Shown: piece by piece, positions 8,791 through 34,316 of the stretch
How positions within the stretch are numbered: the first letter of the stretch is position 1
How the letters are laid out: the number at the start of each line of letters is the position of its first letter
Assembly (NCBI GenBank): GCA_050178795.1
Contig: JBFXFT010000003.1
Location: 3,955 to 67,954, forward strand
Direction: 5' to 3'
DNA length: 64,000 nt
Origin: Spirochaetales bacterium
GTDB lineage: Bacteria > Bacillota > Clostridia > Christensenellales > UBA1242
Made by a program: the position numbers and the translations under genes
Notes under the pieces: generated by a model
The model's database searches: none
What the model saw: only the letters and a program-made list of their open reading frames with translations
Told to the model about the DNA's origin: nothing

Positions 8791-8799
8791 AATAAGTAC

Positions 8800-14480: not shown

Positions 14481-14509
14481 AGTATATTTGATTTTTAACA
14501 AACTGTCAA
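14481..14509 (-). promoter_or_regulatory. Sigma-A promoter of the leader-aspS transcript
   Basis: TTGACA-17 nt-TATACT. Confidence 0.8.
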
Positions 14510-14510
14510 C

Positions 14511-14546
14511 AAAAAAATAAAAGTCCTTTAGTTATGGACTTTTATT
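14511..14546 (-). terminator. Terminator of the SipW/fibre operon
   Basis: ATAAAAGTCC...GGACTTTTAT hairpin followed by a T-run on the minus strand, just after the last gene. Confidence 0.7.
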
Positions 14547-14554
14547 CTATCTTT

Positions 14555-15115
14555 TTATTCTTCTTTACTTTTAGCGGTTTTTACAAAGTCAGCAATTTGA
14601 ATTGCCATAGCTATAAGTAGTGGAATGATTATTATTGTAACAAACAAAAGGGTGTTACTTAACATAGAGGCTAAAAACTTTATTATGGGCATTTCTCTAA
14701 CATATACGCCTTCAATTTTTGCAACCGTTATAATTTCTACATCTTCAACGGAGTTTGCGTCTCCCTTGGTTGTAAACCAAAGCACTCCCTCGTTGTCAGT
14801 AATTTGCGTTACCCTGTGCGTAATATAACTACCTGCGAGGCTACCATAATCGCTTTTATAGGTAATAATATCGCCTATCTGTATTTCAGTTGGGTCAGTG
14901 TCTTTAATTAAAATTACATCTCCAACATTTAGTGTTGGCTCCATACTTGCAGTCAAAATGTAGCAAACCGAGTAGCCAAACACAGTAATCATTTTGTTTT
15001 GAGAACGATAATAACTAAATAGAATGGCTGTAAAAGTAGATGCAACAATAAAAACGATTAATATAATTGAAATTACTTTATCTAATACGCGTCGGTTTTT
15101 TGTTTCTTCTTTCAT
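14555..15115 (-). CDS. sipW: Signal peptidase I, SipW/S26B type (copy 2)
   Basis: LTASMEP (catalytic Ser), ITHRV (His), TKGDAN; N- and C-terminal TM helices. Confidence 0.9.
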   Translation of the reverse strand: MKEETKNRRVLDKVISIILIVFIVASTFTAILFSYYRSQNKMITVFGYSVCYILTASMEPTLNVGDVILIKDTDPTEIQIGDIITYKSDYGSLAGSYITHRVTQITDNEGVLWFTTKGDANSVEDVEIITVAKIEGVYVREMPIIKFLASMLSNTLLFVTIIIIPLLIAMAIQIADFVKTAKSKEE

Positions 15116-15122
15116 TTTGCCT

Positions 15123-16928
15123 CTATTCTTCTAATTCTTTTAATTTTTGTATCAACTCTTCTAGTTTATACTTGTCATAATCCTCGTCAAAATCGTCTGA
15201 ACTACTATCATCTTCCTCTGGAAGTCCGTAGCCCATTAAAGACCCTTCCTCGTCACCTATTATTGGCAAGTCATCTATAGGAGAAGGTGCTATTGGCTCT
15301 TCAACTATTGGTTCTACAACATCAATTTGTTCAGTGTTTTCTGTCTCTTCACTAAGTCTTAAAGCCTCAATTTCGTCATCGGATAGTCCATCAACTTTAA
15401 TTGGCAATACTTTTAATTCGTCTTGCTTAGTCTCTTGGAACTTTAATACTTGTTCTTTATACTCTTTTAGTTTTTCTTCTTGATATTTCTTAATAGCATC
15501 GTTCAATTCTTTTTGCTTAATCTCTTGATACTTTAATACTTTCTCCCTTAACTCTTTGTCTCTTTGTTCTTTTATTCTTTGTTCTGCTTTTTCTTGAGTT
15601 ATTGGGTAATCTGCCATGTTAAGCGTATGTCTTGCTTCAGCAATGGCAACATTTTTGGTTCTAATTTGCTCTTCAATGCTATTGATTGTGCTTCGTAGGT
15701 CTCTAATATTTTGTTGTTCTTTCTCAATTAGCCTATGTTGTCTCATAACATCGTTTGCCATATCAACCATAATCTTATGTTTGTATTGCAAAGCCTCATG
15801 TTTAAATTGCAACAATTTATATTTATCTTCTAGAACTTCAATCTTTTTATTTAAAGGAGTTGTTTTTCTTTCAATAGCAACTCTAATTTTCTCTTCTAAT
15901 TCATCTTTTCGTCTTTGAATTTCAAGCTCTTTATTGCGCTTTTCAATTTCTTTTTCTAACTTTAATTGTTGTTTATAGTCTCTCTCTATGTGTCTTTTAA
16001 ATTCAGTATTAAACACAATTTCAGTTAAGAAGTTTGTAAACACGAAAACATCAGACAATTCATCGTCTGTCCTCTTTGGCATTTTGCCATCAAACGTTTT
16101 ATCTTCATAAGTATAACCTTTGCTGTTATACCTACTAATGTAATCCCATAAGTCCACACAAGTTTTAAAGTTAACGTTTTTTGTCAACAAGTTTGTTTGA
16201 ATAAGTGGTGGTTTAATAAGCTCTACGCCGTGTAATTCTTTAATTAATGGCAAAGAATAGAAGTCACTAATAATTCTTCTAATCCTTACAATTCTTCCAT
16301 AGCCAGAAAGATGTGAAACATCTTCTGTAACATCTACTTTTTGGTTATCTGCTTGAGTTTTATATGCAAACTCAAGAGTCATTGTAGACACTTTGTTTTT
16401 TCTTTTTACTGTTTTATTGATGTCATATTTTACATCAATGCGCTCATCTTTGTTTCTTAAATCCTCATAGCGCCTTTCAATAAATTCATTTAACCTTCCT
16501 AAAAGGGTAAAAAGGAACCTATTTTCATAAATAGCACTATTTGATTCATAATAAATATTTAATATTCTATCTGGTTTTACTTCATTATTTTTTTCTACCC
16601 TGGCAATCATATTTGTATGTTGTGCCAAGTGCCTAATGGATTGTGTATTTACTCTTTTAACCTTTTCAATAGGCACAATCTCATCTTTTTGTTCAATAAA
16701 TGTTCTAGACTCTCTTATTGCCTTATCCATAAAAGGCAATGTGGCTTCAATCTTTTCAAGCCATTCAAAATCCAGCAGTTTGTTGCCGACAACACCGCTT
16801 AAAAAGTTGTTTCCACTGGTATTATTGTGTAAAGATTCTTTGTAATCTTTATACTTCTTATCATCTTCCAGCGTACGTTTCCATGACATATACGCTTTAT
16901 AGAAATTAATAGAATAACTACTTTTCAC
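15123..16928 (-). CDS. DUF2357 (McrC N-terminal-like) protein with coiled coil and acidic tail; no nuclease domain seen
   Basis: EIVPIEKVKRV, SIRHLAQH, IYENRFLFTL, LLTKNVNF..LW pattern; follows an McrB-like gene; C-terminal half K/E/Q-rich heptads. Confidence 0.7.
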   Translation of the reverse strand: MKSSYSINFYKAYMSWKRTLEDDKKYKDYKESLHNNTSGNNFLSGVVGNKLLDFEWLEKIEATLPFMDKAIRESRTFIEQKDEIVPIEKVKRVNTQSIRHLAQHTNMIARVEKNNEVKPDRILNIYYESNSAIYENRFLFTLLGRLNEFIERRYEDLRNKDERIDVKYDINKTVKRKNKVSTMTLEFAYKTQADNQKVDVTEDVSHLSGYGRIVRIRRIISDFYSLPLIKELHGVELIKPPLIQTNLLTKNVNFKTCVDLWDYISRYNSKGYTYEDKTFDGKMPKRTDDELSDVFVFTNFLTEIVFNTEFKRHIERDYKQQLKLEKEIEKRNKELEIQRRKDELEEKIRVAIERKTTPLNKKIEVLEDKYKLLQFKHEALQYKHKIMVDMANDVMRQHRLIEKEQQNIRDLRSTINSIEEQIRTKNVAIAEARHTLNMADYPITQEKAEQRIKEQRDKELREKVLKYQEIKQKELNDAIKKYQEEKLKEYKEQVLKFQETKQDELKVLPIKVDGLSDDEIEALRLSEETENTEQIDVVEPIVEEPIAPSPIDDLPIIGDEEGSLMGYGLPEEDDSSSDDFDEDYDKYKLEELIQKLKELEE

Positions 16929-16963
16929 TTTTTACCTTTCCCATTTATTTTTTTATTTTTTTA

Positions 16964-18493
16964 TTATACTAGTTTTTGATATTCGCTTAGACATGCTTTA
17001 CATTCTTGCATACTCTCTTTTCCGAAGAGTTTGTCCATAAACTTAATTAATCCTTCAATTTCATCTCTTACATAAGACAAGTTCAAATATGCAAACTTAC
17101 GATAAACCTTTTTTGCCATTACATAGTCAATTCCGTTAAGTTCTGAACCACCACACGCCATGTAGGATGGAACGAATGTCTTTAATTGACGCAAAATACG
17201 GTTACCAAAAGCAAGTCTAAAATGTTGAATAACATAGTCGTCTAATTGTTCTAGTTTTTGCAAATTATCTTCTGAAACATGAAAATCCTTTATTGATTTT
17301 TCAATTAACATATTGAAGTGGTCAAAGCCAAGTTTCATAGCTGGGGTATCAGGTGCCTCAAATGGGGTACCCTTTGTATTGATATCAATAGGCATAGCTC
17401 TGTCGTAAACCTTATCTGTAATAGCGAATGTAGAGTCATCGTTATTGGCTGTTCCTATGTACCACATATTTTGAGGTATTAGTAACTTGCCGCCAACTAA
17501 TTTTTTAGGGTCATTGTCCCATACGCTTGCTACAAGTTCTACAATCCACTCATCCTTACTAGGCATTTCCAAAATAGATAGTAATTCTGCAAAGTAATAC
17601 TCAACCCTCGCAATGTTCATCTCGTCCATTACTGTTATGTATACTTCGTTTGTATAGTTTGCTATATACATTTGTTTTAATATATCTGTCTCTGTATATT
17701 TCTTAGTAAACTCGTTGAAATAACCAAATATTTCGGCTTTATCTCTCCAAGACGGTTGAACTGATGCAATAAGTGCATCGTTTTGTAAAAACTTACCCCA
17801 AGCGTAAGCAAGAGATGTTTTACCAGTTCCTGAAATACCTTGCAATATGATTAATCTTGTAGATGAGAATGAAGCGACGAATAATCTAATGATATCAATT
17901 GTGTAATAAAGTTTTAATTTTGAACAACAAAAATTTCTAAACCTTTCACAAAGTCCCGGTAAATCAATTTTGTTGTCATATTGTGGTGCAACATAATTTT
18001 CAAACATTTTATCAACTTCTGTAAGTTTATAAAACCTTGAAGTGTTGCTTTGTCCGTTGCTGTCCTCATTAAGAGACTCAAGTTCATCACCTGTCAGTTC
18101 GGAAATTTCATTTGGATTTAAACCTATTTGAGAAACCTTCATAGACAAAATTTTGTCTTTTTCAAGGTTAAGGCGCATAACTTCTTTGTTTAGGGAGTTA
18201 ACTTCTTTAACTAAGTCGTCTTGAACGACTGCCTTTTGTGCCATAACCATAAGTCTTTTTATACCACGAAAGATTAAGTAAATAATTCCTAAAAGGAAGC
18301 CAAAGACTAATAAAATACATAGAATTCCTACAATCCAAAACCAGCCACCCAGTTCTTCACTATAGGTTGCTATGGTGTTGCCATAGGTTACAACGTCAAA
18401 TGCTGTTAGAATACCGAATACAATTCCTTGTACTATTGTCAGTATGCCATCAAGCAATTGGCCGAAAAAATCTATAATAAAATTAGCCAACAT
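16964..18493 (-). CDS. Membrane-anchored McrB-like AAA+ NTPase
   Basis: Walker A GISGTGKT, VQPSW, Walker B DEMNIARVEYYFA, GTANNDDST (NxD), DKVYDRA; N-terminal hydrophobic helices plus short coiled coil. Confidence 0.85.
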   Translation of the reverse strand: MLANFIIDFFGQLLDGILTIVQGIVFGILTAFDVVTYGNTIATYSEELGGWFWIVGILCILLVFGFLLGIIYLIFRGIKRLMVMAQKAVVQDDLVKEVNSLNKEVMRLNLEKDKILSMKVSQIGLNPNEISELTGDELESLNEDSNGQSNTSRFYKLTEVDKMFENYVAPQYDNKIDLPGLCERFRNFCCSKLKLYYTIDIIRLFVASFSSTRLIILQGISGTGKTSLAYAWGKFLQNDALIASVQPSWRDKAEIFGYFNEFTKKYTETDILKQMYIANYTNEVYITVMDEMNIARVEYYFAELLSILEMPSKDEWIVELVASVWDNDPKKLVGGKLLIPQNMWYIGTANNDDSTFAITDKVYDRAMPIDINTKGTPFEAPDTPAMKLGFDHFNMLIEKSIKDFHVSEDNLQKLEQLDDYVIQHFRLAFGNRILRQLKTFVPSYMACGGSELNGIDYVMAKKVYRKFAYLNLSYVRDEIEGLIKFMDKLFGKESMQECKACLSEYQKLV

Positions 18494-18529
18494 AGTAGCC
18501 CTACTCCTTTAATTGTTAAAATCTATTGT

Positions 18530-19180
18530 TTAGTTGTCTTTTTTCTTTTGCTCCAAAGACTCCAAGTACTTTTTAGCAAGTTCTTGTTTTTCTTCTTCAG
18601 TCAATGATTCAAGACCAGCAACAACTTTCTTGTCACTTTCTTTATATTTTGAAAGTAGCATAATAAAGTTTACAATTTGGTAAATAAATATTGCCGCTAA
18701 TGGAAGAACGATACAGATTAAGAAACCTGTGCTTGATTGAATATAATCAACAATGCTTCCAAAGCCATTTAATTTAATACCAATATACTTAGCAACGATG
18801 TCGCCTGAAGTAATTGTAGCCAAGTCTGATTGATTAACATTATCACCTTGAGTAGAATAATATCTAACTCCCGCAATAGTAGCGTAGGAAATAATTCTGT
18901 GAGTATTTAAAACTTGCTCACCTTCAATAATTGTTCTAAAAGTAACAATATCATCTATTTCAAATTGATCTGTAGGACTTGTAGTCTCAACAAAAATCAA
19001 GTCTCCGGGACCAAAAACTGGCTCCATAGAATCTGTTTGCACGGACAAATACCCTACACCAAAAATGTTCGGTACGCCTTCTGTAGTACTTAAAGATAAA
19101 ATAACTGTTAGTAAAGAAAGTGCGAAGATTATCCAAATTAAAGTATTGCCTACAATCTTCATGATTCGCCTTGTTTTCAT
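18530..19180 (-). CDS. sipW: Signal peptidase I, SipW/S26B type (copy 1)
   Basis: QTDSMEP, NTHRI, TQGDN; two TM helices. Confidence 0.9.
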   Translation of the reverse strand: MKTRRIMKIVGNTLIWIIFALSLLTVILSLSTTEGVPNIFGVGYLSVQTDSMEPVFGPGDLIFVETTSPTDQFEIDDIVTFRTIIEGEQVLNTHRIISYATIAGVRYYSTQGDNVNQSDLATITSGDIVAKYIGIKLNGFGSIVDYIQSSTGFLICIVLPLAAIFIYQIVNFIMLLSKYKESDKKVVAGLESLTEEEKQELAKKYLESLEQKKKDN

Positions 19181-19198: not shown

Positions 19199-20701
19199 TT
19201 AATACAACCAAGTAAGTGTGGCGCTATATTCACTGCTTGCATAGCCCAAATTACCATTAGCTTTTACGCTAACTCTATATTGTGCTCCACTTGGCAAGTA
19301 TACATCTCCATCAAACATTGTATTAACTAAATCTAATGTTAATGAGGTCGTCGTCACCGTATAAGTAACCTCAGTGGTATCATTATACGCACTAATTGTA
19401 TACGATGCTGCGTTTGCAACTGTGTTCCAACTAACTGTTGATGAAACAAGTTCAAAATTGGTTGGAGGTGTTAAAATATTGAACGACAGTGTATTTGAAT
19501 AACTACTACATCCGTATATCTCCGAATACACTTTAACGTTTACATAATACTGCCCCACTTCTAATGCTGCTAGTTCATCAATATCTAGCGAGGTTGCTGT
19601 TGTAAAAACAGTTCTAATAGGGGTTAGTTCGCCGCCGACATATCTGGCAAGTTTAATAATATAATTTTCCGAATAAGTCGTAGCGGAAAGGTTTGTTGTG
19701 GTCGCACTCCAAGTATAATGTGCTGCCACATCATTTACTATTGTAGGAGTGTTAAATTTTTCAATAGCCACATAGTCTTGTCCCACTAATGCTACGTCAT
19801 AACTATTAAAACTAAAATTAATATTTGCTGCGCCACCAGAAATTGAATTTGTTGAATCAATGTCTTGTCCCTCAGACCAAATATAAATCCTAATTTTTGT
19901 TATAGCCTCTGGCATCAATAATGTAATATCATTGGACTCTCCAGCACTAATAGGGTCGTAAGTCGTAACTTCAACGGCTTCTTGTTGAGGTGTTCCTAAA
20001 ACATCTGTTACCAAGTTGTCTACCAAAGTTAGTCCCGTTGCTGGCATATTTACACCGTCATAAGGTTCCTTGCCCTCTGCAAGATAACTACTATGATATA
20101 AATCAATTTTGTCATTTCTTGTTGTTGAGTTTGGTTCCCAAATATAATCAACTGAGGAAATGCCTGTGCCATCAAGCGCAATTGCATCTTCTGAATTAGT
20201 GGCATAGCCAAAATTCAAGAATGCAACTCTAGTTGATAATTCAACATCTTTGTCGCTTAAATCTGTAACACTTGAGTCCATTCCTAAAGTTAATTTTTTT
20301 GCATAAGCATCGTTATTCAATATATAAATATCAAATACGTAATACAGGTCACTATTCGTCAACAAAATTGTTGAGAAAGTATTGCCAGAAAATTCACCTG
20401 TATAAAATTGCATATTACCATTAACAACTGTCGCACTTGATGAAATAGAATTTACTAGTAAATTTTGGTCAATATCAATACTAGCGATACTACCATCTGT
20501 AGTCAAAGTTGGACTCCAATCTGACCCATTACCAGAAAGCAAAATGCCTTCCGATTGAGAAGTAGACATTGTTATTGTTGTAATTGCCGCATGAGTAATT
20601 CTGTTATACCATGCATAAGTAAAAGAAATAATCGCAAAAACAGTTACAAGCATCATTGCAACACTGAATAATATTGGAACTGTTTTTGCTTTATTTCCCA
20701 T
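19199..20701 (-). CDS. SipW-substrate secreted protein (TasA/pilin-like domain plus FN3-like C-terminal domains)
   Basis: Signal peptide ending TYAWY; LSTRVAF, YIWEPNST, IWSEGQDIDS; C-terminal SWNTVANAASY / YRVSVKANG FN3-like. Confidence 0.75.
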   Translation of the reverse strand: MGNKAKTVPILFSVAMMLVTVFAIISFTYAWYNRITHAAITTITMSTSQSEGILLSGNGSDWSPTLTTDGSIASIDIDQNLLVNSISSSATVVNGNMQFYTGEFSGNTFSTILLTNSDLYYVFDIYILNNDAYAKKLTLGMDSSVTDLSDKDVELSTRVAFLNFGYATNSEDAIALDGTGISSVDYIWEPNSTTRNDKIDLYHSSYLAEGKEPYDGVNMPATGLTLVDNLVTDVLGTPQQEAVEVTTYDPISAGESNDITLLMPEAITKIRIYIWSEGQDIDSTNSISGGAANINFSFNSYDVALVGQDYVAIEKFNTPTIVNDVAAHYTWSATTTNLSATTYSENYIIKLARYVGGELTPIRTVFTTATSLDIDELAALEVGQYYVNVKVYSEIYGCSSYSNTLSFNILTPPTNFELVSSTVSWNTVANAASYTISAYNDTTEVTYTVTTTSLTLDLVNTMFDGDVYLPSGAQYRVSVKANGNLGYASSEYSATLTWLY

Positions 20702-20736: not shown

Positions 20737-21969
20737 TTACGCTATTATTACATCAGTTGCTGTTCTGCTTCCGATAGAACCAGTCAACTCGCCTGTAACA
20801 ACAACATTATAAGTATCAGAAGCTGTTACTGGTGTATCTAATGTTATTTCAGTAATATCTGTTGAAGAATAAGTTACTGTACCTGTTGATAGGTATAGTC
20901 TGTAGTCTAGAGATACTGTAGCATCAGTTTCATCTGTGAATACATAAGCTATATAAGTAGCACCTAAGTCGCCTGCTCCACTTACTGTTACGATTGTATC
21001 AGCAACAGGAGTGCTTAAAGCGGTTGCAGTTTTACTACCAAGTTGAGTAGAAGTTGCACCTGAGTCAAATGCTAAAGATATAGAAACGTCACCTGCTGAT
21101 GTTCCGTTGTTACAATCTACGTCTTGTCCTTCCATCCAAACATATACTTTAACCTTAGTGATTTGTCCATTGGTTGCCCCTGGAACTGTTCCAATAACTG
21201 GAGAATCACCGATGTTAATATCTTTTGCTGTGTCAACTAGAGTAGTGTAAGTTGCGTTATAACTTAATAGTCCGTAAGCGTCAATGTCAGTAACTTCTGT
21301 GCTTCCATTGTCTCCAGATATTCCGTTATATTCATATTTTGCTGAGTCTGTTGCCCCACTTGCTAAAGCAGATGCTGAACGAGCTGTAGAATTTGGTTCC
21401 CAAATATAAGTACCAACTCCTTCTGCTAGTCCTGTAACTACTGCTGGGACGTTGTCGCTACCTTCAATAACGAAGGCAACCCTTGTAGAAAGTGAAGTGT
21501 CTTGGTCGTTTGCACCATCTACAACTGATGAAGATTTAGTTAAGCTTAATGTTAGGTCTTCTGCACCTTGGTTTAAGAAATATAAATCAAATACTAGATA
21601 ATTTGTTAAATCTTGTGCCAAAGTAAAGCTACCATCACCAGAAGTTGCACCATAGAAAGTGTACTCTCCTGAAGCTAGGCTATCAACTGTAGAAACTGGT
21701 TCCATTGAAGCAATGGAAAGTCTACTGTTCTCTTGTGGTTGACCTGCAGTTAAATCAAAGTCTGTTGTTGTAATACTTGATCTCCAAGTTAATGCATCAG
21801 TAGAAATTTGAATACCTGAAGCAGCGGATGCTGTAAAGTCAAAACCACTTGCTGCTGCTTGAGAGCCTCTTGTAAACCATGCATAAGTTGCTGTCGTTGT
21901 AGCTGCTGCAGTAACCACTAACATTGCTAAGCTTGTAACTATTGCTGTTAGTCTTTTTTGATTTTTCAT
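20737..21969 (-). CDS. SipW-substrate secreted protein, putative major fibre subunit B
   Basis: TYAWFT signal; YIWEPNST; VWMEGQDVDC; close paralog of 22085-23329. Confidence 0.8.
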   Translation of the reverse strand: MKNQKRLTAIVTSLAMLVVTAAATTTATYAWFTRGSQAAASGFDFTASAASGIQISTDALTWRSSITTTDFDLTAGQPQENSRLSIASMEPVSTVDSLASGEYTFYGATSGDGSFTLAQDLTNYLVFDLYFLNQGAEDLTLSLTKSSSVVDGANDQDTSLSTRVAFVIEGSDNVPAVVTGLAEGVGTYIWEPNSTARSASALASGATDSAKYEYNGISGDNGSTEVTDIDAYGLLSYNATYTTLVDTAKDINIGDSPVIGTVPGATNGQITKVKVYVWMEGQDVDCNNGTSAGDVSISLAFDSGATSTQLGSKTATALSTPVADTIVTVSGAGDLGATYIAYVFTDETDATVSLDYRLYLSTGTVTYSSTDITEITLDTPVTASDTYNVVVTGELTGSIGSRTATDVIIA

Positions 21970-22084: not shown

Positions 22085-23329
22085 TTAAGCAACTATAACG
22101 TCAGTAGCTGTTCTACTACTAATTGAACCAGTCAATTTGCCAACTACTACAACATTGTATGTTCCAGGAGTTGCTGCAATGTCGTTATCTAATGTAATTT
22201 CAGTTACATCAGTTACTGCATAAGTTGCAGAACCAGTTGCTAAGTATAGTCTGTAATCAACAGAAATATTAGTATCAGTTACTGTTTGGAATACATAAGC
22301 TGAGTAAGTAACACTTAGGTCACCTGCTCCTGTTACTGCTAGAGTAGTAGTTCCTGCAAGTGAAGTAAGAGTATCTGCGGTTTTGTCACCTAGTTGAGTA
22401 GCGTCTGCACCTGAGTCAAATGCTAGCTCTATTGCTACGTCACCTGTTGAAGCGGCGTTGTTAGAGTCAACATCTTGTCCTTCCATCCAAACAAATACTT
22501 TAACTTTAGTGATTTGTCCACTGCCTGCACCTGGTAATACGGTAACTACGCCGCTATCACCAATTTCAAGGTCATGAGTTGTGTCAACAATTGTTGTGTA
22601 ACTTGCGTTTGCAGTTAAGTGACCATAATAGTCAATATCTGTAACTGGTACGCCACCATTGTTGTCATACAAACCATGATACTCATATTTTGCTGAAGCG
22701 GTTACGCCTGCAGCTAATGCTGATGCTGAGTGAGTTGTAGAATTTGGTTCCCAAATGTAAGTGCTGCTTCCACCTGCTAAGCCAGTTGCTGTTGTTGGGT
22801 CGTTGTTACTTCCCTCTACAACAAAGCCAACTCTTGTAGAAAGTGATGCATCTTGATCATTTACGCCATCTGTTACTGCTGAAGCGTTTGTTAAACTTAA
22901 AGTTAATGCGTCAGCACCTTGGTTTAAGAAATACAAGTCAAATACCAAGTAATTAGTATGATCTGCACTGATAGTAAAGTTACCGTCGCCAGAGGTTGCT
23001 GTATAGAAGTCAAACTCTCCGTCTGTTAAATCGGCTGTACCATCAATTGTAGAAACTGGTTCCATTGAAGCAATAGAAAGCCTACTATTTTCTTGTGGTT
23101 GACCTGCTGTTAAATCAAAGTCTGTAGTTGTAATACTTGATTTCCAAGTTAATGCGTCTGTAGAAACTTGGATACCTGAAGCAGCAGATGCTGTAAAATC
23201 AAAACCACTAGCAGTTGCTTGTGTTCCTCTTGTGAACCATGCAAATGTTGCTGTTGTCGTAGCCATTGCAGTAATTGCTAACATTGCTACGCTTGTAACT
23301 ATTGCAGTTAGTTTTTTTTGATTTTTCAT
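22085..23329 (-). CDS. SipW-substrate secreted protein, putative major fibre subunit A
   Basis: TFAWFT signal; YIWEPNST; VWMEGQDVDS; strong AAGGAG RBS. Confidence 0.8.
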   Translation of the reverse strand: MKNQKKLTAIVTSVAMLAITAMATTTATFAWFTRGTQATASGFDFTASAASGIQVSTDALTWKSSITTTDFDLTAGQPQENSRLSIASMEPVSTIDGTADLTDGEFDFYTATSGDGNFTISADHTNYLVFDLYFLNQGADALTLSLTNASAVTDGVNDQDASLSTRVGFVVEGSNNDPTTATGLAGGSSTYIWEPNSTTHSASALAAGVTASAKYEYHGLYDNNGGVPVTDIDYYGHLTANASYTTIVDTTHDLEIGDSGVVTVLPGAGSGQITKVKVFVWMEGQDVDSNNAASTGDVAIELAFDSGADATQLGDKTADTLTSLAGTTTLAVTGAGDLSVTYSAYVFQTVTDTNISVDYRLYLATGSATYAVTDVTEITLDNDIAATPGTYNVVVVGKLTGSISSRTATDVIVA

Positions 23330-23391: not shown

Positions 23392-24318
23392 TTACACCTC
23401 CTCATCTTCTATTACAGATATGTTCCATATCATTTGAAGCTCTGAAGAAAACTTGTCGTTCACACAATCATAGTCTGCTCCTTCAAGCCAAATGACAACG
23501 GTATATCTGTCATAGCTTCCCAGTGATAAGTTAACAACGTCGTGCGCTATTGTGTCTAAAGAGTAAAACTCTTCAACAGTAACGCCTGTCCCTTCTATTT
23601 CCCCATCAATTTGTTCTTCATAGGTGTGGGTATAGACAGTAGGAACTCCATCGCTAAAAATTTCAACGCGCATCGCTGTTTCAACACTTTGTGTGCTCAG
23701 TTTAATGCGCAGATCACTAGTATAAGTTAAATCCGCATCTCCAGTGTTAAGTACATAAAACGTATAGCATATGTAATTATCACCATTATGGGAACCGCCG
23801 CCTAGGTCATCTAAGCCAGGTGGCAACCAACTATAAGATATGTTATCTAAGGAGGTGATTGCGGAAGCCTTCAAACCAACGCTTAATCTTTGAAAATTAT
23901 CATCGTCGCTCAAAGAGACTGCTTTGGTAATTCTTTGGTCCGCAATGACGTTAATTCCATAACCAGAATTGACATAAGTATAACTCAAAGAGTACACAAC
24001 GCCTATGGTTAGTAAAATTAAAATCATACCAATTGATATTAGTCTGCCAATAATTATATCACGAGAGACCTTTTTTGTATACCTTTTTGTCGTCAAATTA
24101 CGAAAAAAACCGATTTCTCGCTTGTCTAATTTGTCCTTTAAATCCTCTAAATCTACGGGTGTAAACCTCTTTTTTTTGTCCTTAGAAGTTTTAAGATTTA
24201 AGTCGTCCAAATTAGAAGCTCCTTCGCCGAGTGATTTACCACTTTCTGGAGGCGATGGTCCTCTGTTGTTGACCGCTAAACCGCTGCCAATAATTTCCTT
24301 ATCTGTATTTTTATCCAT
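23392..24318 (-). CDS. Bitopic membrane protein carrying the same WxEGxD domain (putative anchor subunit)
   Basis: About 90-aa charged N-terminus, one TM helix, IWLEGADYDCVN; no YAWF motif. Confidence 0.7.
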   Translation of the reverse strand: MDKNTDKEIIGSGLAVNNRGPSPPESGKSLGEGASNLDDLNLKTSKDKKKRFTPVDLEDLKDKLDKREIGFFRNLTTKRYTKKVSRDIIIGRLISIGMILILLTIGVVYSLSYTYVNSGYGINVIADQRITKAVSLSDDDNFQRLSVGLKASAITSLDNISYSWLPPGLDDLGGGSHNGDNYICYTFYVLNTGDADLTYTSDLRIKLSTQSVETAMRVEIFSDGVPTVYTHTYEEQIDGEIEGTGVTVEEFYSLDTIAHDVVNLSLGSYDRYTVVIWLEGADYDCVNDKFSSELQMIWNISVIEDEEV

Positions 24319-24368: not shown

Positions 24369-27300
24369 TTATGGAACGTGAGTAAAGGTTGTAACTCCGA
24401 CTATTGAATCATAGTAGAATGAGAAGCCTGGAAGTGCTTGATAAGTTGCTAGTAATGTACTTGGTACTCTAATTACTATGCTTTCATAGGTTTGAACTAC
24501 GTCGCCATTTGCATTAACTTCAACGGTAACACCAACTGCAAATGCGTCTGCGTTATAAACGTCAACGTTGTAACCTGTAACAGTAACGTTTACATTAAAC
24601 TCAAATAGTGTAATTCTTGAATTTGAGAATGCACGACTATAAATGTAGTTCTCATAAGTATCTGTATAGAAACACGCAGTGCCAGTAGTTGTGCCAGTAC
24701 CAAAGAACGCATAAGGTTCAATTGATATGTTAGAGTAAACTTTACCTTTGTTACCATAAGCATAACTTGTTGCTGGGTGCAATTCAACGAGTGTTACAGC
24801 CGTATTGTTATAAATAGAATAGCTGTTAATAATTGAAGCAAAGCCCGTAATACTTATGCTTGTTAAGACTGGGTTAGATGCAATTGCGTACGAACTCAAA
24901 AGTACACCAAAACCAGAAGAATTGTTTTGTAAATGAACTGTAGTTAAGGCAGAATTTTCTGCTATTGCATATTGAGACAATGTCAAGTTGTAAGGATAAG
25001 TTGTTACATAACTGTTGATGTTGGTGTTTTGAACCGTACCAGCAATAAATGTAAGTGTTTGCAAGTAATCGTTGTGATAGAACGCTTTTTCAGCAATTTC
25101 TATAACTGTCGTCTCAATTGTGTAAGATGTAGAAGTGTTAGATGGTAAGTATTTATAAAGAACCGTCATGTCGCTCGATTCGTAAATAACTTTATTGCTA
25201 TTTGCGTCTGTATCAATATAGAATGGCTCAGTTCCTGTTCCAGTGAAGCTTACATCTTCAATTTCACTGTTACTAAACATATCCATATTTACGTTTTCTA
25301 CTCCCCTAGGAATAGTTATAACAGTAACCGCTGTTCCGCTAAATACATCTGCACCTAGCGATAGAACCGTATAAGTTTGAGAACGATAAGTAAGTGTTGC
25401 TGGTATAGCAACCGTTGTCAATACTCCTAGATACTTACAAATGTGTGCAGTATAAGTTGTGCCTAAAATATAGAAGCCCCAAGTACTTGAATAATCAATG
25501 TTATAAGTTGTACTAATTTGGCTCATAACAAGTGACCAGTATTGGTCCATCAAATAGTCAGAAAGTAGACTGCCTGGAACATATATTTTTACTGTGCTTG
25601 GAATTGTTGTAATTGTCGCATTTACCACTGTTACATAAATTTCATTGTTGAATGAAATACTAATTAATTCGTCTGCAAGTTCAAAAATATTGTCTGCATT
25701 TAAGTTAATTAATTCTGAGTCAAACACTATGGTTAAAACGTTTGTGCTGTCATAGAACGCCCTATATGAGTTAAGTGTTGGAAGACCGCCAATTATCAAG
25801 TGCGCCGTTCCGCCACCATTCATATTTGCAAAGGCGTAATCGCTTGTAACGCTTAAACACTCTTCAAATACAAATGTGTAAGTAACATTCGTTCCACTTA
25901 CTATTCCGTTAAACATATTTGAACCAAGTGAACGAATGCTGTTAAATGTTAAATTGCCTGAGATATTTGCAAAAGCAAAGGCGTAATTTGCATCAATAAG
26001 TGTTAAAGCAGAATTAAATGTCAAGGCGTCATCGTAAGTAATATAAGAGAATGCATAAGCGCCAAGATAAGATACTGACGAAACATTTAAAGTAACATCT
26101 GTAAAGTCAAATGAATGGAAAGCATAAGAGTCAACAGCACCAGTTAATGTCAATGTATTTGGAATATTGATGTTTGTAATACTGCTATTTCTAAATGCGT
26201 TTGCTCCAACTCCATTAAAGGTTGTAGTGTTTGGAATGTATAAGTTAGTTACAACTGTGTTGTATAGGAAGTTTGCGCCTACAACAAGGCTTGTTGGATA
26301 AATATAAAGTGAACCAATGTGGGTTGAATAAACCGTATCTGCTCCTGCAAATAGTCCAGCAGGTAGCGATGTTATTCCAGAGTTAATTTCAACTACAACA
26401 TAAGTCGTTAGATATGATATGTTGCTTGTTTGGTTACCAAGCATATTTGAAGTAAGTGGTAATGTTCCAGCAATAATCAAGTGTTGAATTAAACCTGCGT
26501 TGTTGAATATTCCGTAAGTACCATCACCATAAGCATAGAATGGGTTAGAAGTATATGAACTGTTACCAATTGTAACTACGCCCAAACTAATTGGTAAGTG
26601 ATAGAAAGCGTTTGCACCTATCGTTACTACGTCTGTTAAGTCAAAATCAACAAAGTTGTCTGAACTCGTCTTAGTAAATGTAGTTTCCGAAAAGGCATAA
26701 GTACCAATACTATCTACGTGTTGTACCCAAGCAAGGTCACAATCTTGTGCAAATACCGCATTAGAGAAAGCATAACTTGTAATGTTATAAACTATGCCAT
26801 ACTCTACTGAAGAAATTTCATAAGTAAGTCCAGTCATAACATCTATTGTGCTGTTTGCAAAGGTGCTTGGTCCAGTCATGGAGATTACACCAGAGGTTGA
26901 ACCATTGTAAATTATGTTTGTAATGACAGAGTTTGCAAAAGCACTATTACCTAAGTCAACCGTTGACGCATTAATATTTATGGTTGAGATGACATTTGTG
27001 TTAAACGCACTGGTATTGATGTCTAGACTTGTGTTTGTGAAGTTAATTGTTCCAATATGTGCGTAATAGAAGGCATTTTGACCAATTGTAATATTATTTG
27101 CGTTTACATTTAAAGTCTCAATTGTAACTGGTACACTGCTAGATTGACTAATAAATACGCTTGCTGGAATCGTCGTAACACTGCTTGAAATGTTTATTAT
27201 TCCGTAATCAACCGACCAAGAATTGTCAACATAACTGTTTCCAAGTGCGTTATATGAGTTAATTGCAGGTAAGTTGCCAACTATGTTAAGTACATCAATT

Positions 27301-30300
27301 CTGCCTGCGCCATAAAGTACGCCGTTTACTCCATCACCATAAGAGTAAGAATCGCCATATAGTGCTGCGTAACTTGAATTACCTAATGTTAAACTGCCAA
27401 TTTTAATTGGTATAAAGGCAAACAACTCTTCGCCAAGAGTAATTGCGTGGCTCAAATCTAGGCTCACATAAGCGTTAGCAGAAGTCTTTGAGAAGGTCGT
27501 ATACATAAAGGCATTATTTTCAATAACCTCTGCGTAGTTAATAAATGTGACATTACAATCTGTTCCAAAAGTTGCATGATAGAATGAGTAGGCACTTATT
27601 TCTTGTACTACGCCGCTGCTTGCGTCTGTAAGACCTGTAATTGCATAGATTGTTGCGTATTGGAATGTATACTCGGCACCAGCGTTATAAGTTATTTCTC
27701 CCACGCCAGAAGTCCTATCGTACACTATGTTTCTTAAAATAGAATACTCAAAAGATTTTGTGTTAAAGTCAAGGCTTGAACTGTATATGTTGAAGTAAGT
27801 TATATCGGTATATGCAAAACTGTCCTCGCCAATATTTAAACTTGATGAATATATATCAAGTGTTGTTATGTGGTTCCTGTAACTTGTGCTATAACCGCTA
27901 AAGCCATAATCTGGAAGTATTGTAACGGCTGCTTCAATTGTTAGTACGCCAATAGTAAGAGATGAGTTACCGCTTAGACCTAGTGCCCTAGTTTGGTACA
28001 TCTCGTTTACATTTGCGTCTGGTAAGTTGCCCGCTATTATAACCTCTTCAACGGTTATTGTGCCAGCGTCTCCAAATATACCTTCACTACCAGATTCGTT
28101 GCCATAATAATATTCTGGTAAGTGGCTGTTGTAATATTCATTGTTGCCTAGAGTTATTGTTCCAAGTGGACTGTATATGTTTTCAAAAATTGAATGTCCG
28201 ATTGTAGGTACTCTTGTAAAGTCAAATGAAACTTTTGCTCCACCACTACTTGCTGTAAATGTTGCATGCTCAAAGGCAAAGTTGCCAATGCTGGATGCAT
28301 ATTCAAATAGGCTTAAATCTGAGTCTTGACTAAATGTTGTATATTGGAAAGCATACTCAGTAACGTCTTGTAACACACCAGCATAATCAAGTAACAAGTC
28401 ATCATAATAAACAAAGTTTGTAAAGTCGCCAATAGTTGCAAAATGGAAGGCATAGTCACCAGTAAATGAAAGTTCGCCATAATTTAGTGCGTCATATTCA
28501 ATGTTGCCAACCGAAATACAGTTAAAGGCATATTCGCCAATCGTTAAATCCTCAGATTGTATATACATATCTGTTACTATCAATCTGCCAGATACGCTAT
28601 ATGAATAGAACATGTAATCTGGTATATTAGTACAATATTGAGTTATGTATATATTACTTATATATATATTAGCGCCATTTGCACCTAAAACGTAAGTGCC
28701 AAGTCTTTGAACAGGAAGTTCGCCGTCAATATATAGGTTTGTGATTGTGCTTACATCGCCACCTGTAAATATACCGCCAGCACTTGTTCCATATACAAAG
28801 TTGCTTTGATTGTTGTTATAGAAAGTTGTGTTTCCTAATCTTACTGTAAGTACTTCAATGTCTCTTAGTGCCTCATTTGCAATAGTTAAACAACTTGTAA
28901 GGTCAAGAGTTGATGTTGTTGCAGATAGAGTATAGAAAGATAATGTTGCGGCACTTGAAGTTCCAAGTGTGTCAATATAGCATGCAGAACTAATTATTGT
29001 GTTAAGGAAAGTATTTGATGCAATTGCAATGTCTTCAAACACAAGGCTCGTACAGTCATAAATTCTGGCGTTTTCAAAGGTATATTGTCCAATTGTTCCG
29101 CTTAAGTACATTGATGTAACAGTATAAAGGCTTGCACCGTCAAATACGTAACTGCCTATTGTTCCGTCAAAGGATATCGCTGTAACCCCTGTTGTGTCAC
29201 TGTTATAGAAAGCATAGTTTGCGACTGTACCAGTAACATCAATGCCAGTTGCAGGTACTATAGAGTCAGCAAAAGCGTAAGTCTCAATGGCAACTAAAGT
29301 CAAATCTCCAAGTGAGCCTACATCACTATATCTAAATGCGTACTCTTGAATTATTGTCGCTGCACTATCATCAAGTAGTGTCTCGCCAGAGTAAGAATAA
29401 ACATTTGTCACAGTAGCGTAATAGAAAGCATAACTTCCTATGTTGCTTATATCATATAAATTTAAGTTCGTAATTGTTATTGCGTTTGCTAGTGCCGAAC
29501 CATAAAACATAAAGTCATAAAGTAGTCCGTTGGTGTTTTTAATGGTAACGTTGTCATATTCCCTATCTGAGGTTTCACTACCGAATAGGAATGTTGCTTT
29601 ACCTGAAGATATTTCTGGAAGCATACCGTCAATAATTAAGTTGGTTGCTTGGAAATCAGAATATATCATACCACTAGTCGTTCCACCATAACTACAATAA
29701 GTGTTTACCTCTGCTTGTGAAACATATAGTGTTTTAATACCAATTGAGAACTCATCTAGGTACATACCCTTAAAGGCAAGTCTTCCTATAGTCATTACTT
29801 CAAAAGCCGAAACTTTGTTGTAAGGATAAAGTTCTGTATAACTCTTAAATTTTAATTCAAAGGCAGAGTCGCCAATTGTTGTAACTCCGTCCAAATAAAG
29901 TTCACAACCATATAAGGAGAAGTTGTTAGTCATACTAGCAGTTATGCTGGTTATGCCACTTAGGTCTAATACCACGCCATAGAAAGAGGCTGAGTTAAAT
30001 GCTCCGTCCCCTATTGCATAAGTTCCGTGAAGGTCTAGTGTATTATTTATTACTCCATCAGTCGTATTTGCAGTTTCAAAAGTTGAAAGTGAAGTTGTGC
30101 CAGTAGTACCTATTGTCGAATTTGCAAAGGCTTGTATTCCAACAGCCGTCATAGCAGAGAAACTTGTTGGTCTAGCGTTTGATGTTGTAATTCTTGCATT
30201 ATAGAAAGCATAATTGCCAATGCTTGCAACGTTACCTAGGTCTAAGTTGTCTATGTATGCGTTATAGAAGATATCTGTTCTTATGTAAGTCATATTGCTT

Positions 30301-32787: not shown

Positions 32788-33399
32788 TTAGTTATAAACT
32801 ACTGTCGTTGTACCTAGGCTTATGTATGTATTTGCAATTTCCATACCAGCGTCTGAGTCTATGTAAATGTACCAGTAAAGTGATAATGTTTGTCCTGCCT
32901 CTATCGTGTAGGCGGTTAGTAGAGGAACGCTCCTCAAAGTATATTGGTCAGTTTGGCTATCATAAACAGCCGAAGTTTTATAAATACCTTTTGCGATTAT
33001 TGGGTCGTTGGTTCCAAAATAAAGGTAGTCATTTAGTGGCGAATCATAAACGACATTTTGCAAATATAGGCTTATAATCATATCGTTTTGTTGAGACTCG
33101 TTTTCAATGTCGGTCATTATGTGAACGAAACTTCCAGGAATTAAATTATTTTCTGTAAAGCCAACTTGTGGGTCAATCTCTTCATACACGAAGTTGTTAT
33201 AAATGTCGGTATATCCGTAATGGTTTGTGACATTTGAGTCAACAGAACCAATATAAATTGTCCTGTTATAGGACATTGTTTTACCTATGTAGCCTTGACC
33301 GTTAAACCAAGCATAAACAGAAGTTATATTGGCAACTAGTAGAAGCACTACCAAACTAAAACTTACAAGTATTGGTGTTAATTTATTTTTACGTTCCAT
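32788..33399 (-). CDS. SipW-substrate secreted protein (minor subunit)
   Basis: Signal peptide ending VYAWFN; NLIPGS TasA-like motif; start overlaps the upstream stop. Confidence 0.75.
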   Translation of the reverse strand: MERKNKLTPILVSFSLVVLLLVANITSVYAWFNGQGYIGKTMSYNRTIYIGSVDSNVTNHYGYTDIYNNFVYEEIDPQVGFTENNLIPGSFVHIMTDIENESQQNDMIISLYLQNVVYDSPLNDYLYFGTNDPIIAKGIYKTSAVYDSQTDQYTLRSVPLLTAYTIEAGQTLSLYWYIYIDSDAGMEIANTYISLGTTTVVYN

Positions 33400-34316
33400 T
33401 AAATCACCTCACTTTCTGCAATATTGTCAAATTGCAAAGCGATGTTTAATAAAGAACCTGCAATAGAGTTTGTGCAAAGTGGGTCGCCACCTTCTAGCCA
33501 AATTCTAACAACGACGTGTATTTGCACTCCGTTTGTTAAATAGTACAAAGTATGTGATGCGCTAAACACGGAATCTTCATAGCCATTGTATCCCGCAAAT
33601 GTTTCAACGTCTTGGTCTGTAGTATAGCCAACTTTTGTTATGCTATCAATATTGCTTACTGCTTCCGTGTAATAGTTGCCGTAATACTCTTGCCTATTGC
33701 CAATTATTTTTGTTGTAGTAGATTCGCCTTCAACAAAAGTTAGTGAAACCCTTACTGGGTTAATTAAGTTATTGCTAATGTCTTTAATGTAGGAATTGGT
33801 GTCATCAAAAATCAAGTAACGATTGTCACCTGTTGATTCAAGTGTTAAGTCAAAATAAATAAAACTTACATTCCTGTCTGATAGGTCGGCATCTCTGAAT
33901 TGAATAATTCCTATTTCGTCGCTCGCTACATCAATGCCCTCATAAATATTTTCTTCATCAACATAGTAAGTTCCTGAGTCTCGTAGGAATAGGTCGCGAC
34001 CATCGCTACTAGACGCCTCCTTTAATGAGAATGTAGAAAAAGATGCACCCAAGTAATTGTTAATATTAATTGACTCGGACACATTGCCATTTACTGTCAT
34101 AACCAAACCTTGTGATTCACCAAGTACAATATTGACACCAGTGATATCCGAAAACTCGGTTGAGAAAACCCAAGCATAAGAAACGGAAATAATGCCAACA
34201 ACCAAAATAAGGGTAAGCGAAATCAATAACGATACATTTGATTTTAACGCTACCCTACTTTGTGGAGTTATTTTAACTTGACTTGATTCTCTTTTTTCCA
34301 TTTTGTCATCAACCAT
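33399..34316 (-). CDS. SipW-substrate secreted protein (minor subunit)
   Basis: SYAWVF after a hydrophobic stretch; EASSSDG, VRVSL, IWLEGGDPLCTN. Confidence 0.75.
   Translation of the reverse strand: MVDDKMEKRESSQVKITPQSRVALKSNVSLLISLTLILVVGIISVSYAWVFSTEFSDITGVNIVLGESQGLVMTVNGNVSESININNYLGASFSTFSLKEASSSDGRDLFLRDSGTYYVDEENIYEGIDVASDEIGIIQFRDADLSDRNVSFIYFDLTLESTGDNRYLIFDDTNSYIKDISNNLINPVRVSLTFVEGESTTTKIIGNRQEYYGNYYTEAVSNIDSITKVGYTTDQDVETFAGYNGYEDSVFSASHTLYYLTNGVQIHVVVRIWLEGGDPLCTNSIAGSLLNIALQFDNIAESEVI

Follow-up and report, generated by a model that had tools for sequence, protein, structure and literature searches.

A membrane-anchored McrBC derivative encoded between two SipW-type signal peptidases in a conserved operon of pilin-like genes

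The window, that is, the whole 64,000-nucleotide stretch of DNA analysed here, encodes a McrB-like P-loop NTPase and a McrC-like partner that lie between two SipW-type signal peptidases in an operon of pilin-like genes. We consider it probable that the pair is a CoCoPALM-type membrane-anchored GTPase ring, part of the machinery of a SipW-processed and possibly TasA-like fibre, and not a restriction enzyme. The pilin-like family, its membrane-anchored member, the tail motif of the upstream SipW and the co-occurrence figures reported below are new to this analysis.

The NTPase (P0001; 16964..18493, minus strand; 509 aa, ATG start) begins with a pair of hydrophobic helices and a conserved heptad stretch next to the membrane; its AAA+ core bears both Walker motifs and an N-N-D-D signature. 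Among solved structures, the closest in sequence is that of E. coli McrB (6hz4_A, E 5e-5, residues 208-371); the NCBIfam McrB model matched the NTPase at E 3.7e-6, a score far below the model cutoff, and Pfam AAA_5 at E 0.0024, also below cutoff, AAA_5 being found in 38/49 family members. An alignment of 75 family members shows little or no variation in Walker A (GxSGTGKT), in Walker B (DEMN) and in the segment GT[AI]N-N-D-D-STF, and the G-T-G-K of Walker A, the D-E of Walker B, and N350, D352 and D353 are present in all 75. A sequence-only reading had given coordinates for the pair that proved exact, both open reading frames lying on the minus strand, and had credited the NTPase with intact Walker motifs, which the family alignment bears out. 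Its label of an NxD-type signature corresponds to one of two possible readings of N-N-D-D, namely NxD plus a further D; the same residues fit NxxD as well, HMMER aligning them gap-free to the N-T-A-D of E. coli.

Transmembrane prediction places hydrophobic segments at residues 13-31 and 57-75 of the NTPase, and the translation beyond them displays a 3-4 hydrophobic spacing (L94/V98/L101/V105/L108/I115), with a heptad-like stretch at 87-120 that is conserved in the family. These membrane helices, the heptad stretch and a linker make up the first 190 residues, which have no domain match: a Pfam scan of residues 1-127 at E<=10 returned noise only, and no DNA-binding reader domain was found at the N-terminus. 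The N-termini of relatives gave weak matches to FtsL_2 (8/49) and FtsL (4/49), and no FtsB homology was seen. On these predictions, the NTPase is membrane-anchored through its own N-terminal helices, in agreement with the earlier proposal of a membrane-bound pair whose NTPase begins with hydrophobic helices and heptads and has no reader domain.

The McrC-like partner (P0002; 15123..16928, minus strand; 601 aa, GTG start) is composed of a DUF2357 N-domain, helices and an acidic tail. The full-length protein had no match in the Pfam scan; residues 1-310 alone matched DUF2357 (E 1.7e-6, 27.9 bits, cutoff 23.3), as did 17/34 homologues. AlphaFold2 (mean pLDDT 71.2) predicts a mixed N-domain (1-306), helices at 308-436 and 445-505, disorder from 506 to 580 and a helix at 582-600, the acidic tail being disordered as judged from the translation and this model. 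When compared with 48,161 chains, the N-domain retrieved both solved McrC structures within the top 26 matches (6ut5_G, Z 7.2, rmsd 3.7, 111 aligned; 6hz4_M, Z 6.5, rmsd 4.5, 114 aligned), and the sole matches of the C-terminal half were coiled-coil structures. No PD-(D/E)xK family was found in the 34 homologues at E<=1e-3, nor did Pfam find any in the C-terminal half of P0002 at E<=10. The sequence-only reading fared well here too: the N-terminal half is DUF2357-like, the internal repeat and acidic tail it described are present in the translation, and the C-terminal half, in which it saw no nuclease, is predicted to form long helices only, with no nuclease family emerging from the HMM scan. 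Its view that the pair does not cleave DNA agrees with our finding that the two proteins are not organised as a restriction system; the mechanical work that it proposed instead is a possible activity of the pair. Judged by sequence and predicted structure, the pair derives from McrBC but has neither a reader domain nor a nuclease fold. It shares with canonical McrBC (E. coli, 6hz4; T. gammatolerans, 6ut5) an AAA+ core that carries both Walker motifs and an N..D signature, as well as the fold of the McrC N-domain. By contrast, membrane helices replace the DNA-binding N-domain, a coiled coil replaces the PD-(D/E)xK nuclease, and the pair is embedded in a secretion/fibre operon.

This operon, a context decisive for function that the sequence-only reading overlooked, consists of 11 minus-strand genes (14555-34316), with intergenic gaps of 36, 35 and 7 bp along the series SipW-McrB-McrC-SipW. 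Seven genes precede the upstream SipW and the pair, six of whose products show T[FY]AW[FYV] after an N-terminal anchor; an anchor followed by [FYW][ASG]W[FIVLMY] occurs in 6/857 ORFs of the genome, all six in this operon. The first gene encodes a pilin-like protein of 305 aa (33399..34316) with an anchor, SYAWV and, near its C-terminus, WLEGGD, which has 97 phmmer matches in related loci. It is followed by a small pilin-like protein of 203 aa (32788..33399), in which VYAWF follows the anchor and WxEGxD is absent and which has 7 phmmer matches including itself, and by a giant surface protein of 2792 aa (24369..32747) that combines VTYAWFSS with BspA-type leucine-rich repeats (Pfam LRR_5, E 7.2e-55, 6 stretches) and is a candidate fibre-borne adhesin; giant proteins occupy the equivalent place in loci L006 and L078. 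The next protein, of 308 aa (23392..24318), is a membrane-anchored pilin-like protein (TM 93-111) and a candidate fibre base or anchor. Its cytoplasmic N-tail of about 90 aa contains FTPVDL, it lacks an AWF cleavage-type motif, and its extracellular domain ends in WLEGADYDC; all 63 homologues of this protein carry WxEGxD. The probable major subunit (414 aa, 22085..23329; TATFAWFTRG ... WMEGQDVDS), its 71% identical paralogue (410 aa, 20737..21969) and a pilin-like protein of 500 aa (19199..20701; SFTYAWYNR ... WSEGQDIDS, extra C-terminal region) complete the series, the last directly upstream of SipW, where the canonical gene order places a pilin-like gene.

The upstream peptidase (216 aa, 18530..19180; two TM helices) and the downstream one (186 aa, 14555..15115; short C-tail, encoded at the operon's end) reach 66.1 and 103.6 bits with TIGR02228, the model of archaeal/ER-type signal peptidase I, above its cutoff of 51.85; with the Bacillus SipW equivalog model, the two reach 83 and 96 bits, below its cutoff of 190. 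S51 and H94, the Ser/His catalytic pair, are invariant in 49 upstream SipWs. The upstream enzyme carries a long cytoplasmic C-tail that holds a conserved LTEEEKQELAKKYLESL motif, with the family consensus LSEExKxxxIEEYLAxQ, and the tail past the last TM helix has a median length of 54 aa in upstream SipWs (n = 66) versus 19 aa in 41 downstream SipWs. Mean column identity is highest for the McrB-like NTPase, the most conserved part of the cassette (67%), against 29% for the upstream SipW and 24% for the pilin-like proteins, as would be anticipated of machinery in comparison with exposed subunits.

The order pilin-like / SipW / McrB / McrC / further pilin-likes / SipW recurs in Clostridia, and in a collection of species-representative genomes at least 583 of 599 pattern-matching stretches encode a relative. 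Among 83 loci, McrB lies on the query strand in 79, nine of which are at a contig edge, leaving 70 testable loci. A SipW is found within two ORFs upstream of McrB, on the same strand, in 65 of these 70, and at least two SipWs are present in 39/79 loci; motif-positive ORFs amount to 151/310 inside the operon span versus 11/703 outside it. The divergent genome G013, of the same family as the window's genome, carries the same cassette at 40% (McrB) and 27% (McrC) identity. In one order, the McrC-like gene is present in 15/151 genomes, and the pilin body in 14/15 McrC-positive versus 0/136 McrC-negative genomes, these genomes being kin and not independent. Among 61 relatives of the window's genome, 4 have the McrC-like gene, and the pilin body is confined to G000 and G013, both McrC-positive. 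Two relatives, G043 and G054, encode a membrane-anchored pair with neither SipW nor pilin body, indicating that in some lineages the pair occurs independently of SipW. Downstream of the L006 cassette lie genes for two EAL (c-di-GMP) proteins.

The window McrB shares 51-62% identity with Clostridia versus 38% with G013, suggesting horizontal movement. Such movement would suit a reading in which the pair came to lie between the two signal-peptidase genes as an unrelated insertion and the adjacency carries no functional significance. This reading is almost certainly wrong, as it is already contradicted by the recurrent order and by the co-occurrence of the pilin body with McrC: the same order is seen in 65 of the 70 testable loci and kept in the divergent G013 cassette (40% and 27% identity), and the pilin body was found in no genome lacking the McrC-like gene, either in the order surveyed (0/136 genomes) or among the relatives of the window's genome (0/57).

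The CoCoPALM class was named in one paragraph by Bell et al. 2024 (eLife 13:RP94800, PMC11090510), its analysis being deferred, and we found no published follow-up or analysis of it. The traits given in that paragraph recur in the window: a McrB-like GTPase fused to a TM and coiled-coil N-terminus, no conventional reader, signal-peptidase-family genes nearby, and a coiled coil on the McrC homologue (PMC11090510). As to the NxD clade to which the class is assigned there, N-N-D-D fits NxD then D and also aligns gap-free to N-T-A-D; as to its FtsB-homologous N-terminus, the TM and heptad layout is present and Pfam gave no FtsB match. We conclude that the pair matches CoCoPALM, with nothing in the published paragraph contradicting membership.

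CoCoNuT, the sister clade, is predicted to be defensive and, by the same account, belongs to the McrB branch of CoCoPALM (PMC11090510); it has in common with the window pair its long coiled coils and, in many cases, the loss of the McrC nuclease. According to that paper, CoCoNuTs also encode additional nucleases (HEPN among them), RNA-binding domains and helicases, of which the window operon has none: Pfam and NCBIfam detected no HEPN or other extra nuclease, no CnuH helicase and no CnuA partner among the 11 operon proteins. Conversely, the TM anchor, SipW and the pilin-like genes are window features that the CoCoNuT passages of PMC11090510 do not describe. The sister clade's predicted role and the Type IV restriction ancestry apparent in the E. 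coli McrB match speak for a pair that is still immune, a McrBC/CoCoNuT-like sensor-effector tied to the fibre as phage receptor or decoy and using a non-nucleolytic abortive route, as do the best PADLOC match of the NTPase, the candidate defence protein PDC-M26A (E 1.2e-34), and the patchy distribution (4/61 relatives, 15/151 genomes of another order). We nevertheless hold an immune role to be quite improbable, given that the pair has no nuclease or other effector domain, that no PADLOC model matches the McrC-like partner, and that the fully read loci contain no defence genes, the neighbours being pilin-like or housekeeping (AspRS, ValRS). The identity of the McrB columns is, moreover, far above what is usual for immune genes, and the pair co-occurs strictly with one structural protein family. 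A McrB-family AAA+ NTPase that moved from restriction to a non-defence role is already represented by PcdA of Staphylococcus aureus (PMC10602043), which keeps EVE reader-type N-domains and works with FtsZ and DivIVA in division. PcdA lacks a McrC partner, a membrane anchor and a SipW neighbourhood, all three of which the window NTPase has.

The pilin-like family is recognised by its T[FY]AWF signal and its WxEGxDxDC body. AlphaFold2 predicts for the 414 aa protein a beta-rich core (40-305; mean pLDDT 61.8). The TasA fibre 8aur_A heads its structural matches (Z 5.8, rmsd 4.1, 146 aligned; VIA, 48,161 chains), a weak match tied with unrelated sandwiches, Z values below 8 being unable to separate kinship from a common beta-sandwich. 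Other donor-strand fibres gave Z 4.5-5.2, and Foldseek returned nothing at E<=1e-3. The closest named ESM cluster of a pilin-like protein carries, as a lead only, Peptidase_M73 (score 0.88), which we take to be the TasA/camelysin family. TIGR04088, the model of the SipW-dependent signal, touched 1/8 pilin-likes (E 0.042, 14 bits, below the 19-bit cutoff). As in the Bacillus TasA-SipW system, a dedicated archaeal-type signal peptidase adjoins the fibre-subunit genes, and the Phe at P2' of TasA has an aromatic counterpart in the ...TFA/WF... of the window pilin-likes (PMC10269814; the slash marks the putative cleavage site); the predicted subunit would also be a beta-sandwich like TasA (PDB 8aur). 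The window differs from Bacillus in the number of its subunit-like genes (6-7) and peptidases (two) and in encoding a membrane-anchored pilin-like protein, and, unlike TasA, the four pilin-like proteins scanned at E<=0.01 had no Peptidase_M73 or TasA Pfam match, their sole Pfam match being a weak, below-cutoff hit of Arch_flagellin on the 414 aa protein (E 0.0015). With type IV filament machines (type IV pili, archaeal pili) the analogy is one of principle: subunit precursors held in the membrane, a signal peptidase devoted to them, an NTPase on the cytoplasmic side, hexameric there and expected to be so here, and a single operon for major and minor subunits (10.64898/2026.04.22.720090). In place of a class III prepilin peptidase, the window has enzymes of the SPase I type, which remove the anchor; in place of PilB/GspE it has a McrB-family AAA+ NTPase; and a PilC-like platform protein is absent.

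In the working model that we favour, the McrB-derived GTPase would form a hexameric ring at the inner membrane face, held by the N-terminal helices and the juxtamembrane coiled coil, and the DUF2357 domain of the partner, whose nuclease has been replaced by the long coiled coil and acidic tail, would plug into this ring and activate it. The operon would export pilin-like beta-sandwich proteins via Sec, and the two dedicated SipWs would trim them at a T[FY]A/W[FY]-like site, the product probably being a TasA-like surface fibre with a giant leucine-rich-repeat adhesin, rooted by the uncleaved membrane-anchored pilin-like protein. The ring may then act as a cytoplasmic NTP-driven platform that organises or gates the adjacent SipW and the membrane-held precursors, its likeliest docking site being the conserved cytoplasmic tail of the upstream SipW, such that cleavage, which would create a new N-terminus, and subunit addition could occur in order at one site.

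TasA-type fibres are built by donor-strand assembly. To our knowledge, this assembly needs no NTPase, and we know of none in the Bacillus system, so that an energy need for the window fibre is not obvious. This would favour a different assignment within the same operon role, in which the ring acts on the finished fibre or in signalling and not in assembly: it might remodel the anchored pilin-like tail (tension, retraction or release) or relay surface contact through the McrC coiled coil. In agreement with this, the family of the anchored protein keeps a basic cytoplasmic N-tail, the AWF cleavage-type motif is absent from 57/63 of its homologues and present in 6, the partner's coiled coil and acidic tail resemble a reach-out or adaptor element, and the two EAL proteins of L006 would suit a signalling role. 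Also in favour of such a role, FTPxDL is conserved in 17/63 of these homologues against a background of 6/1275, but it is confined to a subclade, the one that includes the window. Against it, conservation next to McrB is tightest for SipW and not for the anchor protein, 65/70 loci keeping the order pilin-like-SipW-McrB-McrC. We regard action on a finished fibre or in signalling as an unlikely alternative to a part in assembly.

A bolder form of the assembly reading, which we put forward as a tentative possibility, is that the McrBC-derived ring serves as the indispensable cytoplasmic engine of a widespread and hitherto unseen class of surface fibres in gut Clostridia and small-genome Bacillota, in which SipW cleavage of membrane-held, TasA-like subunits is coupled to NTP hydrolysis through the conserved cytoplasmic tail of the peptidase. 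If true, a new kind of NTP-powered pilus machine would have been built from an immune enzyme, independently of the type IV filament and sortase routes. The pair would be a clear case of McrBC rebuilt to serve the cell surface, and would draw attention to an uncharacterised fibre system that is common in Clostridia of the rumen and gut, with at least 583 relatives in a species-level genome collection. Should the ring power or gate SipW-dependent polymerisation, TasA-type fibres would acquire an energy-coupled way of assembly. The census figures and motifs make the CoCoPALM class directly testable, and the signal and body motifs of the pilin-like family would provide a handle for adhesive fibres in uncultured bacteria.

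The two genes lie on the minus strand and have exactly the limits that the sequence-only reading had given them: an McrB-like NTPase of 509 aa (16964-18493) and an McrC-like partner, P0002, of 601 aa (15123-16928). The closest solved protein to the NTPase by sequence is E. coli McrB (6hz4_A, E 5e-5, residues 208-371). Curated family models only graze it, Pfam AAA_5 scoring 18.3 bits (cutoff 22) and the NCBIfam McrB model 25.9 bits (cutoff 637); the PADLOC candidate-defence model PDC-M26A matches at 1.2e-34. The 75 family members gathered at related loci show little or no variation in Walker A (GxSGTGKT), Walker B (DEMN) and GT[AI]-N-N-D-D-STF. The signature of the NxD branch is described by Bell et al. 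2024 (eLife, PMC11090510) as NxD followed by a second D. The N-N-D-D stretch is compatible with this signature, as had been called previously, and is equally readable as NxxD; HMMER aligns it without gaps to the N-T-A-D of E. coli, and both aspartates are invariant across the 75 members. The N-terminus consists of hydrophobic segments at residues 13-31 and 57-75, then R-G-I-K-R, after which hydrophobic residues recur with 3-4 spacing to about residue 120, as read from the sequence. This juxtamembrane stretch is kept in sequence (L94, E97, E111, I115 and K119 are invariant in 49 homologues), which argues for a specific contact over a plain tether. Coiled-coil calls rest on this sequence reading for McrB and on AlphaFold2 for McrC; a simple in-house heptad score, which flagged nothing in McrB and only residues 389-441 in McrC, was not discriminating.

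P0002 starts with a GTG codon, a choice supported by its N-terminus (..FYKAY..), which lines up with the start of its homologues (..FYRAY..). The full-length protein has no Pfam, NCBIfam or PADLOC match, and DUF2357 is recognised above the gathering score (E 1.7e-6, 27.9 bits vs 23.3) when residues 1-310 are scanned by themselves; the domain is matched in 17 of 34 homologues. AlphaFold2, run on an alignment of 34 sequences (mean pLDDT 71.2), predicts an N-domain of mixed alpha/beta structure (1-306), followed by two helices of great length (308-436 and 445-505), a disordered acidic region (506-580) and a last helix. When the model was searched against all structure representatives, its N-domain matched both solved McrC proteins, of T. 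gammatolerans (6ut5_G, Z 7.2, rmsd 3.7, 111 residues) and of E. coli (6hz4_M, Z 6.5, rmsd 4.5, 114 residues), modest Z values that carry weight solely in combination with the Pfam match, while residues 306-505 matched coiled-coil and other long-helix proteins. Foldseek returned no PDB match at E<=1e-3 for the P0002 model, and a profile built from the 34 McrC-like sequences retrieved coiled-coil noise alone from PDB sequences (best E 0.026). The family's most conserved motif, S[VI][RK]HLAQHT, falls within residues 78-131, which are modelled at low confidence, as would be expected if this segment were ordered only inside the ring. Domain scans detect no reader domain in the NTPase, and Pfam finds no nuclease family in the C-half of P0002 or in the 34 homologues, bearing out the proposal of an McrBC-like pair stripped of both. 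A defence role, for which the PADLOC match would speak and against which the absence of a nuclease stands, is given very little credence, and PcdA of S. aureus provides a precedent for an McrB outside defence.

An archaeal/ER-type signal peptidase I lies on either side of the pair (TIGR02228, 66.1 bits upstream and 103.6 bits downstream, cutoff 51.85). These SipW-type genes lie at 18530-19180 upstream and 14555-15115 downstream, and the gaps along SipW-McrB-McrC-SipW are of 36, 35 and 7 bp, therefore defining an 11-gene operon at 14555-34316. Seven further genes on the same strand lie upstream of the pair, and in six of these an N-terminal hydrophobic anchor precedes T[FY]AW[FYV], as in TATFAWFTRG. 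This anchor and motif occur in 6 of the 857 ORFs of the 933,501-base genome, all 6 within this operon. A conserved body ending in WxEGxD is found in four of the six, followed by xDC/S in three, and one of the six, a protein of 2792 aa, carries BspA-type leucine-rich repeats. The seventh protein (308 aa, 23392-24318, minus strand) has a WxEGxDxDC body, lacks the cleavage-type motif and bears one transmembrane helix, preceded by some 90 aa of cytoplasmic tail. Within this tail lies FTPVDL; F[TS]Px[DE][LIVMF] precedes the transmembrane helix in 17 of 63 homologues of the anchored protein vs 6 of 1275 other ORFs, and is limited to a subclade. In the stretch separating aspS from the last gene of the operon (14281-14554), we noted a strong promoter-like site at 14509-14481 (11/12) and, before the aspS start, a terminator-like hairpin at 14349-14322, a layout resembling a leader or attenuator; Rfam at the gathering threshold gave 0 matches in 9000-36000.

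To the pilin-like family, Pfam and NCBIfam assign no name, and the NCBIfam model of SipW-dependent signals matched one of eight proteins, below its cutoff. AlphaFold2 gave a mediocre model of the 414 aa member (22085-23329, minus strand; mean pLDDT 61.8), its core at 40-305 being rich in beta structure, and Foldseek found no PDB match to the model at E<=1e-3. An exhaustive structural aligner ranked the TasA fibre 8aur_A first (Z 5.8, rmsd 4.1, 146 aligned), a score that unrelated sandwiches reach alike, and scored further donor-strand fibres (CS17 and CFA/I pili, the Sulfolobus thread, cannulae and archaeal bundling pili) at Z 4.5-5.2. The ESM Atlas returned unnamed clusters only, the nearest named one carrying Peptidase_M73 (53% of members), the camelysin/TasA family, at 0.88, under the trust level. 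At the predicted cleavage site, ..TFA↓WF.., an aromatic residue occupies P2' as it does in TasA, a feature that the abstract of PMC10269814 links to SipW. We conclude that the subunits are secreted and of the SipW type, and that as fibre subunits they possibly resemble TasA, the fold assignment being tentative.

A single-protein query yielded no relative; scanning one genome per species with an alignment yielded at least 583 relatives among 599 candidate stretches, the best 80 being mostly from Clostridia (Ruminococcus, Acutalibacteraceae, Oscillospiraceae). ORFs were called in 83 loci and labelled by phmmer with the window's proteins as queries. McrB was on the query strand in 79 loci, nine of them at a contig edge; in the other 70, a SipW gene lay at most two ORFs upstream of McrB on the same strand in 65, and adjacent SipW was absent in 5. 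SipW was present anywhere in the locus in 70/79 and in two or more copies in 39/79. With the signal motif included, the loci typically run pilin-like, SipW, McrB, McrC, several pilin-likes, SipW, and motif-positive ORFs number 151 of 310 within that span vs 11 of 703 beyond it. Chance adjacency of the pair and the signal-peptidase genes is hardly credible given such counts. In G013, a genome of the window's own family, the order is giant protein, SipW, McrB, McrC, SipW, with identities of 40% (McrB) and 27% (McrC). Right after this cassette in G013 (locus L006, G013:C3:8800-28799, 11490-15132) are two EAL-domain (c-di-GMP phosphodiesterase) proteins (about E 3e-57 each). Across loci L006 and L008-L078, the McrB-like protein of the window (16964-18493) is 51-62% identical to its Clostridia homologues vs 38% to that of G013, and there are sequence hints that the system may have been transferred horizontally.

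A census of 151 genomes from one order (that of G061) found an McrC-like gene in 15. The pilin profile is matched in all 15, reaching the body (profile positions >200) in 14, with the exception, G092, fragmented at the locus; among the 136 genomes without the gene, none matches the body and 17 match the signal region only (positions <=105). The 17 (G075, G078, G084, G101, G106, G107, G118, G124, G125, G127, G128, G135, G152, G161, G173, G191 and G205) match mostly in large proteins (frames mostly 410-770 aa), with up to 8 per genome (G128); the anchor and AWF-type signal are therefore in use beyond this system. Of the 61 genomes related to that of the window, G000 and G013 alone have the pilin body. 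Since the genomes of both censuses are kin, their counts describe a pattern and amount to no statistical test. An orphan, lipid-anchored paralogue outside the window and away from the operon (G000:C7:7491-9290, minus strand, 599 aa) has a lipoprotein-type signal (..SALFAGC..) and a C-terminal domain matching the body profile (E 3.8e-50, positions 52-319) with WxEGxD present. Two genomes, G043 and G054, have a membrane-anchored McrB and an McrC with neither SipW within 20 kb nor pilin body. The neighbours of the G043 pair (locus L005, G043:C8:41500-61499, 5779-18647) are a BspA-repeat protein and two transglutaminase-core/AgI-II-C2 proteins (730 and 1602 aa), so the module still stands next to surface proteins, of a different kind, which suggests that more than a single type of surface assembly makes use of it. 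Taken together, the pair very probably works with the fibre operon and is no restriction enzyme. The earlier interpretation of a non-restriction derivative with membrane helices stands in that respect, and is otherwise superseded by the context of two SipWs and pilin-like genes.

The SipW immediately preceding McrB (n = 66) has a median length of 249 aa and a cytoplasmic tail of median 54 aa past the last membrane helix, with the consensus LSEExKxxxIEEYLAxQ (in the window, LTEEEKQELAKKYLESL); its tyrosine is kept in 90% or more of 49 sequences. For downstream SipWs (n = 41), the medians are 199 aa and, for the tail, 19 aa. A cytoplasmic partner best explains a conserved cytoplasmic motif on an enzyme with an outward-facing active site, and the neighbouring ring would be the obvious candidate. 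In solved McrBC structures, McrC stimulates McrB by inserting into its ring. Bell et al. state that McrB is a hexamer and that McrC interacts with its signature motif, stimulating GTP hydrolysis (PMC11090510). By analogy, the ring would be held beneath the membrane by twelve helices plus six juxtamembrane ones and activated by the partner's DUF2357 domain, the coiled coil taking the place of the nuclease that normally dimerises the McrBC complex. We favour, as probable, a ring that would be the cytoplasmic platform of the fibre machine, ordering or gating SipW cleavage and subunit addition. The main rival retains the operon membership and assigns the ring a role in signalling or an action on the anchored pilin-like protein; we hold it to be less likely.

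The platform reading concerns a pair that belongs to a known, uncharacterised kind. One paragraph of Bell et al. (PMC11090510) outlines a large clade whose GTPases carry a fused FtsB-like transmembrane/coiled-coil domain and are accompanied by proteins of the signal-peptidase family, coiled coils being usual on McrB and McrC homologues alike; it names this clade CoCoPALM and defers its analysis to a later paper. Three of the five defining features are seen in the window's pair, and NxD-branch membership and FtsB homology are compatible with it, though not reproduced. Searching the literature for CoCoPALM, or for McrB with pilus, AAA+ and signal peptidase, found no follow-up beyond the eLife paper, whose supplements may list pilin-like neighbours or FtsB evidence, and its preprint. 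CoCoPALM is thus already named, yet unexplored and abundant, and is now testable.
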